Below, one piece after another: positions 21,928 through 31,153 of a DNA stretch of 64,000 nucleotides. Source of the stretch: an uncultured Fulvivirga sp. Lineage in GTDB: Bacteria; Bacteroidota; Bacteroidia; Cytophagales; Cyclobacteriaceae. Each line of letters opens with the position of its first letter. Within the stretch, counting starts at the first letter, position 1. The stretch spans positions 66,388-130,387 of the forward strand of contig CANMSE010000006.1 in assembly GCA_947500555.1 (NCBI GenBank). The letters are read 5' to 3'. A model generated the notes under the pieces. The model worked only from the letters and a program-made list of their open reading frames with translations, was not told the origin of the DNA and ran no database searches. A program made the position numbers and the translations under genes.

Positions 21928-23070
21928 ATGAAAATAGGAATAGTATGTTATCCTACCTTTGGTGGTAGTGGCGTTGTAGCAACTGAGCTTGGAAAAGCAT
22001 TGGCCAAAGAAGATCATCAGGTTCATTTCATTACCTATTCGCAGCCCACAAGACTTGATTTTTTTAATCAAAATTTATTCTATCATGAAGTTACTATTCG
22101 GAATTATCCACTTTTTGACTATGCCCCTTACGAGCTTGCTCTTGCAAGTAAAATGGTAGATGTAGTAAAACATGAAAAGTTAGATCTTCTCCATGTTCAT
22201 TATGCCATTCCTCATGCCAGTGCCGCTTACATGGCAAAGCAAATATTAAAATCTGAAGGTATTAATATACCAGTGATCACTACTCTTCATGGAACTGACA
22301 TTACCTTGGTTGGTAAAGATGCCTCTTACGAACCTGTGGTAACTTTCAGTATCAATGCCTCAGATAGTGTGACTTCTGTCTCTGAAGATTTAAAGAAAGA
22401 TACGTACGAGCACTTCGATATAACTAAGGAAATTGAAGTAATCCCCAATTTCATTGATCTTGAACGATTCAAAAAGCAAAAGAAAGAGCATTTTAAAAAG
22501 GCCATCTGTCCAGATGGTGAAATGCTGCTGGTACATACATCAAATTTTCGAAAGGTTAAGCATGTAGATGATGTGGTAAGAGTGTTCCATAACCTAAGAA
22601 AGGAAATTCCAGCTAAATTATTATTAGTTGGAGATGGGCCAGAAAGAACAAACATAGAAGCCCTGTGTCGTGAACTTGGAGACTGTGAGGATATTCGATT
22701 TTTGGGTAAGTTGGAAGCAGTAGAAGAAGTTTTGTCGGTAGCAGACTTATTTCTCATGCCTTCTGAAAAAGAGAGCTTTGGGCTAGCAGCTTTAGAAGCC
22801 ATGGCCTGTGAAGTTCCGGTAATCTCCACCAATGCAGGTGGAATACCTGAATTGAACATTCAAGGTAAGACAGGTTTTCTGAGTGAAGTGGGAGATATTG
22901 AAGACATGACTAAAAACGCACTTCATATACTAGACAAAAAAAATCTTCCTACTTTCAAACATAACGCGCTTGAGCGCGCCAAAGAATTTGATATTACCAA
23001 TATTTTGCCCTTGTATGAAGATCTGTACTTTAGAACACTAACTAAAAACAGGGAGCTTCAAGAGAGTTAA
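21928..23070 (+). CDS. bshA: N-acetyl-alpha-D-glucosaminyl L-malate synthase (bacillithiol biosynthesis glycosyltransferase)
   Basis: GT4 fold. MKIGIVCYPTFGGSGVVATELGKALA...HVHYAIPH...ESFGLAALEAMACEVPVI closely matches my memory of BshA. Confidence 0.8.
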   Translation: MKIGIVCYPTFGGSGVVATELGKALAKEDHQVHFITYSQPTRLDFFNQNLFYHEVTIRNYPLFDYAPYELALASKMVDVVKHEKLDLLHVHYAIPHASAAYMAKQILKSEGINIPVITTLHGTDITLVGKDASYEPVVTFSINASDSVTSVSEDLKKDTYEHFDITKEIEVIPNFIDLERFKKQKKEHFKKAICPDGEMLLVHTSNFRKVKHVDDVVRVFHNLRKEIPAKLLLVGDGPERTNIEALCRELGDCEDIRFLGKLEAVEEVLSVADLFLMPSEKESFGLAALEAMACEVPVISTNAGGIPELNIQGKTGFLSEVGDIEDMTKNALHILDKKNLPTFKHNALERAKEFDITNILPLYEDLYFRTLTKNRELQES

Positions 23071-23151
23071 AAACTAGAATATTTTAGTACATAATTATTA
23101 TTATTTCGACTTCATACCATAATTTTGTAAGTAGATAAGGTCAATCAAGAA

Positions 23152-23781
23152 ATGAATAACAAAAATTCTTCACCTAACAATAAAGGCACAAAAACACTGT
23201 CCTCCAATCCGCTTATTGAGCGATTGACCAGGACTCATATTTCAATTCCTATTACATTATTTTTACTTTATTCGGGAGGTTTACTTTATTGGAGTGCCAT
23301 AAACACTTCACTTTCCATTGTAGTAACTGTAGGTCTATTTTTCATAGGTCTGTTAACATTTACACTCGTAGAATACATCATGCATCGTTATTTATTCCAT
23401 ATGGAATTGACGACAACACTTAGAAAGAAAATGCAATACATCATGCATGGTGTGCATCATGAATTTCCAAAGGATAAAGATAGATTGGCTATGCCACCAT
23501 TGGCCAGCCTTACTATTGCGACAACATTACTCTTTCTACTAAGATTGGTGATGGCTGATTATGTATTCGGGTTTTTACCCGGTTTTTTAACAGGTTATGC
23601 CGGTTATCTATTTGTACATTATATTGTACATGCATTTCAACCTCCAAAAAACATTTTTAAAACACTTTGGGTACATCATGGAATACACCACTATAAAGAC
23701 AATGAAAGGGCTTTCGGTGTTTCTTCTCCGCTATGGGATTATATCTTCAGAACAATGCCCCGGCTAGAAAAAAAGACCTGA
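23152..23781 (+). CDS. Fatty acid hydroxylase / sterol desaturase superfamily membrane protein
   Basis: Histidine boxes HRYLFH, HGVHHEFP and HHGIHHY. Confidence 0.8.
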   Translation: MNNKNSSPNNKGTKTLSSNPLIERLTRTHISIPITLFLLYSGGLLYWSAINTSLSIVVTVGLFFIGLLTFTLVEYIMHRYLFHMELTTTLRKKMQYIMHGVHHEFPKDKDRLAMPPLASLTIATTLLFLLRLVMADYVFGFLPGFLTGYAGYLFVHYIVHAFQPPKNIFKTLWVHHGIHHYKDNERAFGVSSPLWDYIFRTMPRLEKKT

Positions 23782-24171
23782 TTAGTCAGGTTTCTTACCT
23801 TTTAGCTTATTTCTGTAACGTCTCATCTTATACCTGCGAAGTCGGTAGTCTAATGCCTCCTCTAGAAACTTTATCAAGTTCATCTTGGTAGTACTAGTAT
23901 CTGGTTGCGTTACTTTCATATATTCGACTTTCGTATTTCTTGTTTTAGTTTTTTTATGTCCTTTTTAGCCTAAGTAGGACAAAGTATATTTTATAGACAG
24001 CAACAAAGAAACGGCAGATACATGTTGCGAGTTCAGTTAACCTGGTGAGATTTAGTCAAAAAACTTACATCTGTGACTGTCAGAAAAGAATAGAACTATA
24101 AATTAAACTGAACAGAAATTGATCTAACTTGGTTTTACTATTATTCTTATATTAAATAAGTATGCCTCTTA

Positions 24172-25269
24172 ATGCTAGGACATAGATTTACAGACTTCAT
24201 ACCAAATCCAAAAGATAATAAATCAGATTTTGACAATCTACTAGATGTTTTTCTACAACTACTAGTCATAACCGCAGGTGATGTGTCGGAAGCATTAAGT
24301 TGGTTAAACAATGTAGACAGACAATATAATCTTACAAGTGACGCCTATGGAATGGGTGATTTTATTGAAGATCTGAAAAATAAAGGCTATATCACTGATG
24401 AAACTCCAGAAGGTAAATTTGAGATTACGGCTAAAAGTGAGCAGAAAATCAGAAGTAGTGCGTTGGAAGAAATATTTGGTAAGCTAAAAAAATCAAAAAA
24501 AGGAGATCATAAAACGAATTTTGGAGGTTTAGGTGATGAGCCGGGAACTGACAAACGGGATTATCAATTCGGAGATACGCTGGAACAAATCTCAATTACC
24601 GATTCATTGCGTAATGCGCAGATCAATCATGGGCTGGATAGCTTTATGATGACCGAGGGCGATCTGGAAATTATGGAGAATGAGTATAAAACTCAGACCT
24701 CTACTGTGCTTATGATCGACATCTCCCACTCCATGATACTTTATGGTGAAGATCGAATTACTCCGGCAAAAAAGGTGGCCATGGCACTGGCTGAGCTAAT
24801 CACTAAAAAATACCCTAAAGACACCTTAGATATTATCGTTTTCGGTAACGATGCCTGGCAAATTGAAATTAAAGATCTCCCCTATCTTCAGGTGGGTCCT
24901 TATCATACCAATACAGTGGCCGGTTTGGAATTAGCAATAGATTTACTTCGTAAGAGAAAAAATGCTAATAAGCAGATATTTATGATAACTGATGGTAAGC
25001 CGACTTGTCTTAAGCAAGGAATAAAGTACTATAAAAATAGCTTTGGGCTCGACAGTAAAATTTTAAATCGTACGCTCAATTTAGCTAAGCAATGTCGAAA
25101 GCTTAGAATTCCGGTAACAACTTTTATGATTGCCTCCGATCCTTACTTGAAGGAGTTTGTTAAAGAATTTACACAAGTGAATAATGGCAATGCTTATTAC
25201 AGTAGTTTGCAAGGTTTAGGTCACCTTATTTTTGAAGACTACAGGCGAAACAGACGAAAAAACTTATAA
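24172..25269 (+). CDS. von Willebrand factor A (VWA) domain protein
   Basis: Intact MIDAS: VLMIDISHSM (DxSxS) plus FMITDGKPT. Confidence 0.8.
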   Translation: MLGHRFTDFIPNPKDNKSDFDNLLDVFLQLLVITAGDVSEALSWLNNVDRQYNLTSDAYGMGDFIEDLKNKGYITDETPEGKFEITAKSEQKIRSSALEEIFGKLKKSKKGDHKTNFGGLGDEPGTDKRDYQFGDTLEQISITDSLRNAQINHGLDSFMMTEGDLEIMENEYKTQTSTVLMIDISHSMILYGEDRITPAKKVAMALAELITKKYPKDTLDIIVFGNDAWQIEIKDLPYLQVGPYHTNTVAGLELAIDLLRKRKNANKQIFMITDGKPTCLKQGIKYYKNSFGLDSKILNRTLNLAKQCRKLRIPVTTFMIASDPYLKEFVKEFTQVNNGNAYYSSLQGLGHLIFEDYRRNRRKNL

Positions 25270-25279
25270 GTCACCTTTT

Positions 25280-26776
25280 ATGGATATAAAGAAGATTAAC
25301 ACTTTAGGAGCGTTAAAAAAAGCTGGTTATAAATCTCGCTCGGTAAAACAAGAGTTGAGAGAAAATCTAATTCAGAATCTTAAGAATAAAATCAATGTCT
25401 TTGAAGGCATCTGGGGATTTGAAGAAACTGTCATTCCAGACTTGGAAAGAGCTATCCTTTCTATGCACGATATCAACTTTCTTGGGTTAAGAGGACAAGC
25501 TAAAACCAGAATGGCTCGGATGATGGTAAAGCTTTTGGATGAATATGTTCCAGTTATAGCAGGCAGTGAGATGAATGATGATCCTTTGAATCCAATCTCA
25601 CGTTTTGGAATCGATGAAGTCAACGAAAAAGGAGATGACACTCCGGTTAGTTGGTTATCAAGAGATGATCGCTATACCGAAAAACTAGCCACTCCTGATG
25701 TATCAATTGCTGATTTGATAGGTGATGTTGATCCTATAAAAGCAGCTACTTTGAAATTGCCTTACTCAGATGAACGGGTCATCCACTTTGGTTTAATACC
25801 AAGATCTCATCGAGGTATTTTTGTGATTAATGAGCTTCCTGATCTACAGGCTAGAATTCAGGTAGCTCTCTTTAATATCTTGCAGGAAGGGGACATTCAA
25901 ATCAGAGGTTTTAAGGTGAGAATGCCTTTGGACATTCAATTTGTGTTTACGGCTAACCCTGAAGACTATACAAACAGGGGAAGCATTGTCACACCACTTA
26001 AAGATAGAATTGATAGTCAGATCATTACACACTACCCTAAAAGTATTGAGATCGGCAGAAAGATCACGGCACAAGAGGCAAATGTAAAGCCTGAGCAAGA
26101 AGAGCTTATCACTGTCAATGAATTGTCAAAAGATTTAATTGAGCAGATCGCTTTTGAAGCACGTAATAGTGAGTATGTCGATGCAAAAAGTGGTGTATCA
26201 GCACGATTGACCATATCAGCTTATGAAAATCTATTAAGTGCTGCTGAACGAAGAGCATTAATCAATAATGAAAAGACATCCATTAGAATATCTGATTTCT
26301 ATGGCGTAGTGCCGTCTATTACCGGTAAGGTAGAGCTTGTTTATGAAGGGGAACAGGAAGGTCCAGGAATAGTAGCTCATAATCTGGTAGGTAAGGCCAT
26401 TAGAACTAAGTTTATAGAGTTTTTCCCTGACCCCGATCAACTAAGAAAGCAAAAAGCTGAAAATCCTTATACGGAAATTACGAGTTGGTTTGGAAATGAA
26501 AATGTTGTTGACCTTCTGAACGATTATGATAAATCAGACTATGAAAAAGCGCTAAAGGCAGTTCCCGGTTTAACTGCTTTGGTGGAGAAGTATCATAAAA
26601 AGGTTGATGCTCCTTTAAAACTCTTTTTAATGGAATTTGCGCTCCATGGGTTGTCTGAGTATAGTATGCTTAGCAAACATCAATTGAGCAAAGGTCTACA
26701 GTTCAAAGACTTATTGAGTAGCATGTTCACCATGCCAGAGTTGGGCGAGGACGAAGATGAAGAATCTTTTAAGTAG
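25280..26776 (+). CDS. ChlI/MoxR-like AAA+ protein with deviant Walker motifs
   Basis: GLRGQAKT (Walker A-like), GIFVINELPD (Walker B position, N instead of D), FVFTANPED (sensor 1) and TPLKDR (Arg finger-like). I prefer the ATG at 25280 (MDIKKINTLG) to the track start at 25232. Confidence 0.8.
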   Translation: MDIKKINTLGALKKAGYKSRSVKQELRENLIQNLKNKINVFEGIWGFEETVIPDLERAILSMHDINFLGLRGQAKTRMARMMVKLLDEYVPVIAGSEMNDDPLNPISRFGIDEVNEKGDDTPVSWLSRDDRYTEKLATPDVSIADLIGDVDPIKAATLKLPYSDERVIHFGLIPRSHRGIFVINELPDLQARIQVALFNILQEGDIQIRGFKVRMPLDIQFVFTANPEDYTNRGSIVTPLKDRIDSQIITHYPKSIEIGRKITAQEANVKPEQEELITVNELSKDLIEQIAFEARNSEYVDAKSGVSARLTISAYENLLSAAERRALINNEKTSIRISDFYGVVPSITGKVELVYEGEQEGPGIVAHNLVGKAIRTKFIEFFPDPDQLRKQKAENPYTEITSWFGNENVVDLLNDYDKSDYEKALKAVPGLTALVEKYHKKVDAPLKLFLMEFALHGLSEYSMLSKHQLSKGLQFKDLLSSMFTMPELGEDEDEESFK

Positions 26777-26783
26777 TTTATTT

Positions 26784-27428
26784 ATGACTTTGCAAGACCT
26801 GAGAAAGCTCGTAGCTCAGGGCGAGTCTGCTTCACTGGAATTTAAACGAAAGGTAGCTCACCCTGACAAAATTGCCCGAGAGATGGTGGCATTTGCCAAT
26901 ACCAACGGTGGGCAGGTTATCATTGGCGTGAGTGATAATGGAAATATCCCTGGGTTAAAGTATCCTGAGGATGAGATATTCTCTATGAATACTACCTTGG
27001 AAAAGCTTTGCAAACCAAAACTGCCTTTTGATCTAGAAGAAGTAAAACTAAGCGAAAAGGCCTCAGCCATTATTTACACCATTCCAAAAAGTGACAAGCG
27101 ACCACACTATGTTAAGGAAGACCCCGATAGCAAGTGGGGACAGGCCTACGTTCGGTATGATGACAAAAGTGTGAAAGCTAGCAGAGAAATACGAGAGATC
27201 ATCAAAAGGCAGAAGCGAATGAAAGATATTCGCTTCAATTTTGGTGAGAAGGAGAAAGTGCTTATGGAATACTTAAACGAGCATCACGAAATCTCACTAA
27301 GCAAATTCAAGTCAATTGCTGGTATCAACAACTACGTGGCTTCTAAAACCCTGATACTTCTTGTTTTAGCTAATGTATTACGTGTTCAACCAACAGAAAA
27401 AGGAGACATCTACCGACTGAAAAATTAA
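26784..27428 (+). CDS. AlbA_2 (Schlafen-like) putative nucleic-acid-binding domain protein
   Basis: GESASLEFKRKV...IAREMVAFANTNGGQVIIGV is the AlbA_2 signature. I prefer the ATG at 26784. Confidence 0.7.
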   Translation: MTLQDLRKLVAQGESASLEFKRKVAHPDKIAREMVAFANTNGGQVIIGVSDNGNIPGLKYPEDEIFSMNTTLEKLCKPKLPFDLEEVKLSEKASAIIYTIPKSDKRPHYVKEDPDSKWGQAYVRYDDKSVKASREIREIIKRQKRMKDIRFNFGEKEKVLMEYLNEHHEISLSKFKSIAGINNYVASKTLILLVLANVLRVQPTEKGDIYRLKN

Positions 27429-27517
27429 ATTTTAAAAACTTTATAAAACTTCTTTTGCCTTACTCAAACAGTTGTCTATTTTAGCCCAACTTCACCACTA
27501 CAAACAAACCTATCAGT

Positions 27518-28855
27518 ATGGCTAAAGCGCAAAAGGAGAAAAAGGTTTTCGTTCTTGATACATCGGTCATAATTTTTGAGCACAATTCTATCATGAACTT
27601 CGATGAGCATGATATCGGTATTCCGATAACGGTGCTGGAAGAGTTAGATAACTTCAAAAAAGGTAACGACACCAAAAATTTTGAGGCTCGGGAATTTATT
27701 CGATTGATTGACAAACTAGCTGATGGTAAAATGCTCCATGATTGGAACTCACTGAATGGTAAAACCAGAGGTAGTTTCAAAGTTTTAATGGATCAGAAAA
27801 GTACCATCGATGCCACTAAGGTCTTTGATGAAGAGAAAGCAGATCATCGGATTCTTAACTCGGCCCTACAGTTAAAAGAAGAAATGAAGGGCCGCAAGGT
27901 GATCCTTGTTTCAAAAGATATTAACCTGCGCTTAAAGGCAAAATCGCTCGGATTACCTGCTGAGGATTACAATACCGGTAAAGTAAAGAACGTCAGCTCT
28001 CTATACACTGGCAAATCAGTACAGGATAAAACTGCGCCTGAAAAAATCAATGAGATTTATGAGAAGGGGAGCTGCACTCCTAAAGAGGTTTTGGGCAGAA
28101 AAAAACCTTCAAAGAACAGCTACTATATTTTAAAGAATGGGAAGAAATCAGTCTTAGCCCATTATAACCCGATCAGTGATCAAATAGAGCATGTGGAAAA
28201 GCGTGCCGTTTATGGTATTAAACCTCGGAATGCAGAACAGGCTTTCGCGATTCATGCGATCATGAATCCGGAGATTAAGCTGGTGAGTATGCAGGGTGTT
28301 GCTGGTACCGGTAAAACCTTGATTGCACTTGCAGCAGCTTTGGAGCAGAAACGGGATTTTAAACAAATCTATTTGGCTCGGCCAATAGTACCTTTAAGTA
28401 ATAAAGACATTGGCTATCTCCCCGGGGATATAAAGTCAAAGCTTAATCCTTATATGGAGCCTCTTTGGGATAACCTGAAATTCATTCAGAATCAGTATCA
28501 CGAATCTGATAAGGAGTACTCAAAGATTACCGATATGGTGAACCAGGAAAAGTTGGTGATTACGCCTTTAGCCTATATCCGTGGTAGAAGTTTATCTAAC
28601 ATCTGTTTTATTGTGGATGAGGCACAAAACCTTACACCTCATGAGGTAAAAACGATTATTACACGAGCAGGTGAGAATACCAAGATCATCTTTACTGGTG
28701 ATATTTACCAAATAGACACTCCTTACTTAGACTCACAAAGCAATGGCCTCTCCTACCTCATTGACCGAGTGAAAGATCATGAACTCTATGCGCATGTGAC
28801 CTTAGAAAAAGGGGAACGCTCGGAGTTGGCGAATTTGGCGAATGAGTTGTTGTAA
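27518..28855 (+). CDS. PIN-domain + PhoH-like ATPase (YlaK-type)
   Basis: N-terminal PIN (VFVLDTSVII...ITVLEELD), Walker A GVAGTGKT, Walker B FIVDEAQN. Confidence 0.9.
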   Translation: MAKAQKEKKVFVLDTSVIIFEHNSIMNFDEHDIGIPITVLEELDNFKKGNDTKNFEAREFIRLIDKLADGKMLHDWNSLNGKTRGSFKVLMDQKSTIDATKVFDEEKADHRILNSALQLKEEMKGRKVILVSKDINLRLKAKSLGLPAEDYNTGKVKNVSSLYTGKSVQDKTAPEKINEIYEKGSCTPKEVLGRKKPSKNSYYILKNGKKSVLAHYNPISDQIEHVEKRAVYGIKPRNAEQAFAIHAIMNPEIKLVSMQGVAGTGKTLIALAAALEQKRDFKQIYLARPIVPLSNKDIGYLPGDIKSKLNPYMEPLWDNLKFIQNQYHESDKEYSKITDMVNQEKLVITPLAYIRGRSLSNICFIVDEAQNLTPHEVKTIITRAGENTKIIFTGDIYQIDTPYLDSQSNGLSYLIDRVKDHELYAHVTLEKGERSELANLANELL

Positions 28856-28922: not shown

Positions 28923-29309
28923 ATGAAAAACGTGGTGATTATTATCTTTTTAATATTCTGTAAAACTAGTTTAGTTTTTGGGCAGGTGGATAACAATTGT
29001 GACTTGAAAATGAAAGTCGTCAACAGGACTCCTTATTATATCGATCAGTTAGTTTTCGGAAAGACTAAGATACTAGAAATCAAAAGCAATAAGACCTCTA
29101 GTCAAATTTGTTTAGATAAGGTCAAAACTCAAATAGGCTATGATCTTCTATATCGCAAAAATCGTTTTCTGTTTAATCAGAAGAAAAAGGAAGCGGGAGT
29201 ATTGATCGATTTTTTCGGGAAATTAGAAATAACAGAGGGGAATTTTTTGCTTGTTCTGACCCTAGATTCTGAAGGTGAATTTGACTTTGATCTGATAAAC
29301 AGGCCATAA
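28923..29309 (+). CDS. Secreted hypothetical protein
   Basis: ORF with signal peptide. No recognised domain. Confidence 0.45.
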   Translation: MKNVVIIIFLIFCKTSLVFGQVDNNCDLKMKVVNRTPYYIDQLVFGKTKILEIKSNKTSSQICLDKVKTQIGYDLLYRKNRFLFNQKKKEAGVLIDFFGKLEITEGNFLLVLTLDSEGEFDFDLINRP

Positions 29310-29311
29310 TT

Positions 29312-29981
29312 CGAGTAGACGGCCCGACTAAATTAGTCGGGGTGCGCCTCTCACACCACCCAGCCCTTCCTTCGTCAGGACAGGCCAAGCAGTTCTCGTA
29401 CTGGGCGGTTCGTAAAGCATACATTGCCGCTCTTTACACCAGCAGTGCTTTCCGCTACTTCTAGGATAAGGCTACACAAAGGCTCCTTATCGAATTTTCA
29501 CTTCGCAATACGTTCAGCCCTTCACTACCTTGTGAGACCTCCCCGCTTTTAGCAGAGCTCGTTACCAATAGTTACTATGGCTTCTGCTGACTTCTCTTGG
29601 ATGTTCACGACATCCGGAGATCTCCCCAGGTAAGGGCATATTCCTTTCCCCAATATCCACTGGATCTACTCTAAAGACTCTTGATAGTTGCCTACCCTTG
29701 AGACGTCAGTATGATCCCGTAACAAGTACGGGACAGGTCGTGCTACCTCATCCAACCTTTACAGCCTCCGTATCCAGTTCCTGTTCGTTGGAACAGGGGT
29801 TTGCAGTCTCGCTTCCTTCAGTGCATACCTCACGGTAAACCTCCTTGCCACTTGCTAATACTTCGGGGCACAGCCTGTCCCGTTGAAGAACGGGAACCCC
29901 CGCATATAAGGGACTAGGATTTCTCCGCACCCTCTGGAATAATTTGGCATCTTCGATACCAGATGCCCATGCTGGGCACAC
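29312..29981 (-). ncRNA. ORF-less group II intron-like ribozyme RNA (class C-like); 3' boundary approximate
   Basis: GC-rich, ORF-free block. The minus strand begins GTGTGCCCAGCATGGG (GUGYG 5' end). It contains CTGAAGGAAGCGAGACTGCAAACC, CCCTTACCTGGGGAG, AGAAGTCAGCAGAAGCCATAGTA and GAACCGCC...GGTGGTGTG, which I recall as conserved blocks of the Oceanobacillus iheyensis IIC intron. No reverse transcriptase ORF. Confidence 0.72.
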
Positions 29982-30174
29982 ACAAATAATAAGCTCAATG
30001 AGCAAACTGAGTTACAAACAAAATTCAGCGGAAACAGTAACTTTAAATCAATTGGAAAGGGTATGCTAACTGAGCTACGAGCATTCTTCAGTGCAAAACA
30101 TTAACTTCAGAATCAACTGAAAGAATATAAACATGTGTTTGTTATTTAGATGTTAATTTATAATTATTATATCT

Positions 30175-30835: not shown

Positions 30836-31153
30836 ATGTCAACTTATTGTTTATTCCAAAATTTAGAAATCACTGCACCTGAAAAGATGCAAGAGTATGT
30901 AGCCAAAGTCAAACCCATAACAGCTTCTTTTGGGGGAGAATATGTGGTGAGTGACGCAAATATAGATATTAAAGAGGGTGATTGGCAGCCGATATGGCCA
31001 GTAATAATTAAGTTTCCATCCTTGAAACATGCTCAGGATTGGTATGAATCAGATGCTTATAAACCGCTAAAAGAACTTAGAAAGTCTGCGGGTAAATTTA
31101 GTGCTGTTTTTATGGAAGGGCAGAATAATAATATAGTTTTTAATTGCTCGTAA
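30836..31153 (+). CDS. DUF1330 domain protein
   Basis: About 100 aa with the ...IIKFPSLKHAQDWYESDAYKPLKELR pattern typical of DUF1330. Confidence 0.7.
   Translation: MSTYCLFQNLEITAPEKMQEYVAKVKPITASFGGEYVVSDANIDIKEGDWQPIWPVIIKFPSLKHAQDWYESDAYKPLKELRKSAGKFSAVFMEGQNNNIVFNCS

Follow-up and report, generated by a model that had tools for sequence, protein, structure and literature searches.

A class C group II intron without an open reading frame and with an expanded domain V, in an intergenic gap of an uncultured Fulvivirga sp.

The 64,000-nucleotide stretch of contig CANMSE010000006.1 from an uncultured Fulvivirga sp. (the window) contains an intergenic gap of about 670 nucleotides (nt) without a credible open reading frame (ORF), which raises the question of what this GC-rich sequence is and how it came to be there. 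A reading made from the letters of the window alone (the sequence-only reading) had proposed an ORF-less class C (IIC) group II intron RNA and offered three fates for it: a protein-independent hydrolytic endonucleolytic ribozyme (HYER), an intron mobilised in trans, or a decaying relic. These were the right candidates, and comparison with related introns favours the second. The element (29309..29981, minus strand, 673 nt), hereafter the window intron, is probably a non-autonomous IIC intron that is mobilised in trans, representing one copy of an abundant and currently mobile family in Bacteroidota, and by definition it would also belong among the HYERs. Loci of related introns or genes are designated by L-numbers, and intron coordinates refer to the minus strand.

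Identity and extent of the window intron

The window intron is complete: it is a class C group II intron RNA that lacks an ORF and has all six domains in the correct order. Two Rfam models match it over their entire lengths and above their gathering scores, in agreement with the class C identity proposed earlier: RF02001 (group-II-D1D4-3) at 29635-29839 (95.6 bits, E=3.8e-18 for the whole window, model positions 1-170 of 170), covering the core of domain I (D1) with its conserved junction GACGAACAGGAAC at 29777-29788, and RF01998 (group-II-D1D4-1) at 29517-29611 (45.4 bits, E=5.6e-5, model positions 1-84 of 84), covering the end of D1, the conserved block AGAAGUCAGCAGAAGCCAUAGUA and domain II (D2). 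The element aligns over its full length with 15 ORF-less relatives, and its overall fold is significant against shuffled sequences (z=-4.7; shuffle z-scores serve as the measure of fold significance throughout). Its GC content of 51.1% stands out from both flanks (33%) and from the window (37%), and the earlier hand counts of G+C (37/60 and 20/60) are exact. The strings singled out by the sequence-only reading are likewise all present, namely GTGTGCCCAGCATGGG (29981-29966), CTGAAGGAAGCGAGACTGCAAACC (29821-29798), CCCTTACCTGGGGAG (29636-29622), AGAAGTCAGCAGAAGCCATAGTA (29595-29573) and GAACCGCC...GGTGGTGTG (29411-29352).

The intron runs from 5' GUGUGCCCAGCAUGGGCAUC to CUACUCGAAU 3'. Its 5' splice-site consensus GUGUG occupies 29981-29977, and the first 20 nt are identical at at least 120 Bacteroidota loci. 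The 3' end, ...CUACUCGAAU with an AY-type terminus (GAAU), lies at 29309, so that the span starting at 29312 in the sequence-only reading has to be extended. This boundary was set by the RF00029 alignment of the relative L003, which ends in ...CUACUCGAU, and is further supported by relatives in which another intron begins directly after CGAU.

Downstream of D2, the junction J2/3 (GAAGGGCUGAACG, 29511-29523) and domain III (together 29461..29523) are defined by conserved columns of the family alignment. Domain IV (D4) is a stub of 49 nt (AAGUAGCGGAAAGCACUGCUGGUGUAAAGAGCGGCAAUGUAUGCUUUAC, 29412..29460) without an ORF, whose elements GGUGUAAAGAGC...GCUUUAC are common to ORF-less relatives, whereas RT-encoding relatives carry a reverse transcriptase (RT) ORF of 426-438 aa at this position. 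In the 64-kb window, no ORF of at least 150 aa with a Y[AVIC]DD motif was found and tblastn with a family RT gave a best E-value of 6, consistent with the earlier description of a short D4 stub and a window devoid of RT. The gap contains just two ORFs, both on the minus strand and 83 and 85 aa long, and Pfam matches neither, in line with the earlier view that no credible ORF is present. Domain VI (D6) with the 3' end (29309..29352) aligns with the D6 of relatives and is predicted to fold with a minimum free energy (MFE) of -22.1 kcal/mol (z=-5.3). The predicted fold includes a basal helix of 3 bp (GAG/CUC) and, at 29316, the bulged A of the branch point, then 4 nt to the 3' end. A 3-bp basal helix with a bulged A is described as the pattern of most IIC introns (PMC4748821).

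The crystallised IIC intron of Oceanobacillus iheyensis, O.i.I1, offers a structural reference. It natively encodes an RT in D4, which was removed for crystallography. The Rfam D1-D4 models reveal the same domain order and conserved blocks in the two introns, and both possess a CGC triad as well as a bulged A and a 3-bp basal helix in D6. However, a simple hairpin containing a 2-nt bulge makes up domain V (DV) of O.i.I1 (PMC4424553), whereas the window intron has a three-way junction there and, in addition, four extra small hairpins.

A mobile intron family in Bacteroidota

Relatives were collected by searching GTDB representative genomes for exact matches to the first 20 nt of the window intron, which occur in at least 120 stretches. 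Among the matches listed, all belong to Bacteroidota (Algoriphagus, Cyclobacteriaceae, Flavobacteriaceae, Saprospiraceae, Fulvivirga and others), several genomes contain more than one copy, and many matches lie at contig ends. Complete copies fall into two groups, ORF-less elements of about 575-750 nt and RT-encoding introns of about 1.85-2.0 kb, with the ORF-less copies outnumbering the RT-encoding ones in this sample. Both types lie within 8 kb of each other at L029 and L087, and genomes with ORF-less and closely related RT-encoding introns are also represented by L005 and L004. A blastn search placed ORF-less relatives on plasmids of Persicobacter, Chryseobacterium and Tenacibaculum, in intergenic gaps that carry no annotation; it also located the RT-encoding relative L005, with an annotated ltrA, on a plasmid of Adhaeribacter swui. 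A scan of viral contigs for ORF-less relatives returned 0 matches.

The RT-encoding intron L020 (from an Algoriphagus metagenome-assembled genome (MAG), with a 426-aa ORF and canonical DV) is about 85% identical to the window intron in the aligned blocks of D1 to domain III (80-94%). It shares with the window intron the 5' 20-mer, D6 and the target consensus; in contrast, the window intron has no ORF, a D4 stub of the ORF-less type, three small D1 insertions and an insertion in DV. More generally, RT-encoding class C introns of Bacteroidota such as L020 and L005 combine an RT/maturase ORF of 426-438 aa in D4 with a canonical DV, neither of which is present in the window intron.

Copies of the family occupy many different sites with a recognizable target. 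All of the complete copies compared (50/50) have distinct flanks that share the consensus ...uTaTA.aC.tTGT^T...(G)GTTTWTT, and many of them are preceded by a long stable hairpin whose end lies 0-6 nt from the insertion point (...UUGU^). The literature describes IIC introns as inserting behind terminator hairpins and being transcribed by read-through (PMC4424553, PMC4748821). The flanks of the window intron, ...GAGCUUAUUAUUUGU^UAUGGCCUGUUUAU, match the family consensus (...UUGU^U...GUUUAU): the 5' exon (29982..30008) forms a weak hairpin, AGU-UU-GCUC-AUU-GAGC-UU-AUU, followed by AUUUGU^ in the region of intron-binding site 1, and the 3' exon, from 29308 downward, begins with UAUGGCCUGUUUAU. A putative exon-binding site 1 (EBS1) lies in the loop CUAUCAAGAG (29678..29687), where CAAG could pair with UUUG at positions -5 to -2 of the 5' exon; this assignment, obtained by eye from a comparison with the 5' exons of 14 relatives, is tentative.

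The window intron almost certainly arrived as a family member by retromobility. Mobilisation in trans is favoured because ORF-less copies outnumber RT-encoding ones, often within one genome, and because the insertion site fits the family consensus. According to this model, the intron would have entered its site by reverse splicing into DNA at the family motif, and an RT supplied by an autonomous relative elsewhere in the genome would have copied it in trans. Once transcribed, it may adopt an active ribozyme fold capable of splicing or hydrolysis, in the manner of the ORF-less IIC introns called HYERs. Bacterial ORF-less group II introns that are mobilised or spliced in trans by the intron-encoded proteins of related introns have been described (Simon et al. 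2008, reviewed in PMC4424553), and these likewise share genomes with closely related RT-encoding introns. The same review calls ORF-less introns rare in bacteria, whereas they form the majority in the present sample.

HYERs are described as ORF-less group IIC introns that are present in multiple copies in genomes and cleave nucleic acids hydrolytically (Liu et al. 2024, per PMC12990946 and PMC11754743); HYER1 is 637 nt long (PDB 8K0P/8K0S). The cleavage that characterises the class is protein-free and Mg-dependent and acts on RNA or single-stranded DNA, a target recognition site of ~6 nt serving as the guide. Set beside these descriptions, the window intron is likewise derived from class C, lacks an intron-encoded protein and is of similar length (673 vs 637 nt), and its family is multi-copy in the resident genomes with short exon or target recognition. 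On its IIC origin and lack of an ORF, it would by definition be placed in the HYER class. As the ORF-less IIC class is already known (HYER, 2024) and the family is common in Bacteroidota, the identification has annotation value and is no surprise.

This likeness also bears on the possibility that the host has domesticated the element as a stand-alone ribozyme, that is, a protein-free guided hydrolytic endonuclease directed, for example, against foreign DNA or RNA. ORF-less IIC introns are reported to hydrolyse RNA and single-stranded DNA in vitro with a 6-nt recognition site (PMC12990946, PMC11754743), and the core of the window intron is conserved. However, the family occurs at many unrelated sites with a target consensus of the retroelement type and co-occurs with RT-encoding relatives, and no sign of a host function was seen at the window locus, which is non-syntenic in the nearest genome (synteny ending at 28855) and yielded no expression signal in promoter scans. 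Domestication is therefore very improbable.

As a separate observation, the ORF-less elements themselves are followed by other introns. At L004 (~3018), L034, L095, L129, L132, L144, L153, L158 and L175, a second, different group II intron with the 5' end GTGTGCTGTG starts right after the last base of an ORF-less element (...CTACTCGAT), and the second intron in L004 is matched by RF01999 and RF00029. This direct abutment suggests that the D6 hairpin and 3' tail of the ORF-less element may serve as a target for another IIC-type intron.

The domain V variant and the state of the ribozyme

The most unusual part of the window intron is its DV, which is expanded to 60 nt (29352..29411), as established by comparison with the canonical DV of the family, MFE prediction and covariation of the lower helix. 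The bulge and triad of DV form the two-metal active site, an arrangement common to U2/U6 of the spliceosome. In relatives, the canonical DV reads AACCGCCGUAU-ACGAGACCCGU-AC-GUACGGUGGUGUG, whereas that of the window intron reads AACCGCCCAGU-ACGAGAACUG-CUUGG-CCUGUCCUGACGAAGGAAGG-GCUGGGUGGUGUG. The insertion, consisting of the linker CUUGG and the hairpin CCUGUCCUGACGAAGGAAGG (29365..29389), takes the place of the AC bulge and of the final upper-helix base. The sequence-only reading had recognized the block GAACCGCC...GGTGGTGTG correctly but overlooked this interruption at the catalytic bulge, which is the reason the block measures 60 nt instead of the usual ~37. A perfect 10-bp lower helix (ACCGCCCAGU/GCUGGGUGGU) is retained together with the CGC triad (29405-29407), and it is capped by an upper hairpin, CGAGAACUG (29390-29398). 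Three compensatory changes maintain the lower helix (CGUAU/GUACG to CCAGU/GCUGG), and L150 has another compensated version. The domain is predicted to form a three-way junction with an MFE of -26.8 kcal/mol (z=-3.5).

The same DV junction is widespread. A metagenome scan for ACGAGANNNGCTTGGCCTGTCC, the DV junction of the window intron, with a fixed 19-base pattern retrieved 52 stretches, of which about 48 are introns. All 48 retain the triad-bearing lower helix, the small upper hairpin ACGAGACCCG, the CUUGG linker and the CCU-GA...GA-AGG hairpin, the tandem G-A being replaced by Watson-Crick pairs in some subtypes; the invariance of the linker and of part of the hairpin is uninformative, since these were fixed by the search pattern. 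At the top of the lower helix, by contrast, three pairs are changed on both sides among 16 distinct variant sequences, in which 85% of cells are paired vs 31-46% with slid partners. At least 6-10 distinct 3' flanks were observed per DV subtype.

Several carriers of the variant appear autonomous or recently copied. RT-encoding introns with the variant DV comprise L151, with a 426-aa ORF, and L164, where the RT ORFs of two 95%-identical copies on one contig are almost the same (one difference noted, close to the C-terminus); the ORFs of L151 and L164 all contain RVT_1 and GIIM domains. ORF-less pairs that are 97% identical and lie at different sites (L142/L169 and L132/L158) also carry it. Since reverse splicing depends on catalysis, a DV of this architecture is most simply read as compatible with activity. 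From the intact RT-encoding carriers and the near-identical copies at many sites, the variant DV is probably compatible with catalysis and appears compatible with mobility.

A single origin of the variant was rejected on the basis of RT and backbone relationships. The RTs of variant introns are closer to those of introns with canonical DV (L151 vs L020, 76%; L164 vs L017, 79%) than to one another (L151 vs L164, 63%). The backbone of the window intron is unlike that of L151, and its identity to other variant carriers is about 58-66% overall and 82% over the DV segment. These relations indicate that the DV segment has either passed from one intron to another or been gained at the same position more than once.

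Two other folds were considered for the variant DV. A coaxially extended DV, as in the MFE structure of the L127 type (pairing GACC/GGUC and GCUUGG/CUGAGC), requires pairs that are missing in the window intron and in the L132, L138 and L107 subtypes, and it was rejected because only the three-way junction is common to all subtypes. A local "mini-DV" in the window intron (CCCAGU-ACGAGA-ACUG with a CUU bulge) would have a lower helix of just 3 bp and an unpaired triad, and it is further ruled out by the covariation of the distal GCUGG strand with CCAGU.

A metagenomic multi-copy subtype of the variant carries two extra DV hairpins (L139, ~395-500; also L138, L145, L154 and L166-L168): CCUGCCU-GCGGCA-AGGCAGG in the 5' strand of DV and the module at the bulge site, which would form a four-way junction. 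At least six different 3' flanks of the L139 type were found within one sample.

The possibility that most directly opposes an active element is that of a relic, in which an old ORF-less copy is no longer transcribed or catalytic, the hairpin at the DV bulge having killed the ribozyme while the sequence drifts. Several observations weigh on that side or against a functional, mobile intron. The DV AY bulge is absent (canonical CCCGU-AC-GUACGG becomes ACUG-CUUGG-(hairpin)-GCUGG), and the canonical AC bulge is described as coordinating catalytic metals (PMC4424553). The DV/DVI model RF00029 gives no match at the window locus even at E<=10, so that a check against group II covariance models succeeds for D1-D4 and fails for DV/DVI; this failure is explained by the insertion that replaces the bulge. 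Within DV, the upper hairpin is weakened by a G-U in place of G-C and a competing local pairing CAGU/ACUG is possible, and a 1-nt insertion precedes the 3' end (CGAAU vs CGAU). The window holds a single copy of the intron, with no second one in its 64 kb, and no RT. The upstream hairpin is weak (-4.5 kcal/mol, z=-1.0, with 31/200 shuffles as good), scans upstream of the intron detected neither a sigma-70-type nor a Bacteroidota-type (TAnnTTTG) promoter site, and the intron is antisense to both neighbouring genes. In addition, it deviates at 16 family-invariant columns and carries four hairpin insertions specific to its lineage, and L107, with the same DV insertion, is clearly degenerate (70 deviations and a large D1 deletion).

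However, the distribution of these deviations does not resemble general decay. All domains and conserved blocks of the window intron are intact, including D6 and the branch-point A. Outside DV, it deviates at 7 of ~228 family-invariant columns, a number in keeping with other copies (0-10) and well below the 70 of L107, and the remaining 9 of its 16 deviations lie in DV, where most are compensatory pairs that keep the 10-bp helix perfect. Its DV falls within the range of the variant (AACUG vs ACCCG, with each of the two substitutions found separately in other members) and looks maintained, and the same DV is present in intact RT-encoding introns and in recently copied ORF-less elements. A relic is accordingly a possible but rather unlikely explanation, and trans-mobilisation remains the preferred reading; whether this particular copy is a competent ribozyme is an evenly balanced question.

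A broader proposal may be put forward tentatively, with odds somewhat against it. In a IIC lineage of Bacteroidota, DV may work without the two-base bulge, using instead a three-way junction of linker and hairpin that has spread among divergent backbones, including autonomous ones; the window intron would then be active yet missed by DV-based searches, and the ~25-nt GCCUGUCC hairpin would be a module moving between sites and introns. This proposal assumes that no HYER with such a DV has been described before. A literature phrase search, whose scope did not include the HYER paper, found no report of DV insertions in group II introns. The window intron is an ordinary member of its class, and the replacement of the bulge by a hairpin is a structural variant, not a new class. 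If the proposal is true, a mobile lineage with a hairpin-bearing junction in place of the bulge shows how far the active site can be rebuilt, and a natural set of variants is at hand for structure-function work. Knowing where D1 and DV tolerate insertions is also of practical use for engineering compact RNA-only nucleases.

For genome annotation, surveys that rely on the DV/DVI model or the RT gene will overlook such introns, a blind spot named in PMC4424553. Even the canonical relative L003 (2926-3005) scores 39.3 bits with RF00029, below its gathering threshold of 40 bits; the model therefore misses a canonical family member at that score and the variant DV entirely. Pipelines anchored on RF00029 or the RT gene (e.g. 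PMC8919778) will under-count the family.

The insertion locus, recurring hairpins and neighbouring genes

The intron is flanked by a 128-aa ORF without known domains (28923..29309) and a gene for a Crp-like regulator, both on the opposite strand, as the sequence-only reading had noted. The TAA stop of the 128-aa ORF spans the exon/intron junction (29307-29309, plus strand). Joining of the exons (CCATA|ACAAA) gives the same stop, indicating that the intron sits at the very end of this ORF, on the opposite strand, and leaves its product unchanged.

An ordinary cis-spliced intron would need a host transcript, and such an intron could reside in an unannotated minus-strand transcript, produced for example by terminator read-through, with a maturase supplied from elsewhere and its own mobility lost. 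The usual position of IIC introns behind terminator hairpins, with transcription by read-through, is in keeping with this (PMC4748821, PMC4424553), as are the small hairpin and U-rich tract 5' of the insertion point. However, the ~1.85 kb upstream of the intron contain no minus-strand gene and are occupied by three plus-strand genes, the hairpin is weak, and a terminator scan detected no terminator-like site at the intron. This explanation is improbable, and the trans-mobilised intron is again preferred.

Comparison with the Fulvivirga sp. MAG GCA_040220315.1 places the intron in a variable region. The two genomes are syntenic at about 73-75% DNA identity over 22001-23759 and 24060-28855, with no alignment reported for 23760-24059, and synteny stops exactly at the stop codon of a PIN-PhoH gene (28855), the PhoH protein of which clusters at >=90% identity with one from a Fulvivirga sp. 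MAG. To the right of this break (28855/28856) everything differs from the MAG, including the 128-aa ORF, the intron, the Crp-like gene and a 105-aa ORF (30836-31153). A comparison with an empty site was attempted and abandoned, as GCA_040220315.1 loses synteny at 28855 and the locus of a Crp homologue, L178, is also non-syntenic; the gene after Crp in L178 is a member of the DUF1330 family.

Within the intron, D1 carries three of the extra hairpins: a 10-nt mini-hairpin, GGAGAAAUCC (29917..29926), which is an insertion specific to the window intron in the alignment; GUUCCCGUUCUUCAACGGGACAGGCUGU (29870..29897), an "antisense-type" GCCUGUCC module in a D1 loop where compact relatives have a GUAA-type loop; and GACCUGUCCCGUACUUGUUACGGGAUC (29713..29739), a "sense-type" module that the RF02001 alignment shows as an insert of 27 nt and that is missing in most relatives but occurs at the same site in L032. 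The last two belong to a hairpin module of ~25-30 nt with the conserved arm RG-CCUG-UCC(C/U)G...C(G/A)GGA, which recurs in family introns: in the window intron at 29870-29897, 29713-29739 and 29365-29389, and also in L032, L036, L107, L112, L127, L142, L169 and others. Across the family, it is found in either orientation at at least seven positions of the intron core, in D1 loops, D2, the DV loop and the DV bulge, and the D1 and DV copies of L107 are near-perfect reverse complements over 27 nt. The CCUGU of the module has complements in the conserved D1 junction GAACAGGAA (29777-29788) and in GGACAGG on the 5' side of D4 in the RT-encoding L151 and L005. Candidate origins are a mobile mini-element, recombination or a selected tertiary motif. 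An obligatory pairing between D1 and DV through antisense and sense modules (GGACAGGC vs GCCUGUCC) was rejected, as L132, L158 and L036 have the DV module without a partner of the antisense type, and a k-turn formed by the tandem G-A pairs was rejected for want of a 3-nt bulge at the right place.

Further upstream on the plus strand, an AlbA_2/Schlafen-like ORF (26757-27428) directly precedes the PIN-PhoH ATPase gene (27518-28855). The pair, whose family names derive from homologues in L179, is conserved in the Fulvivirga MAG and is possibly of a defence or stress type, unrelated to the intron.

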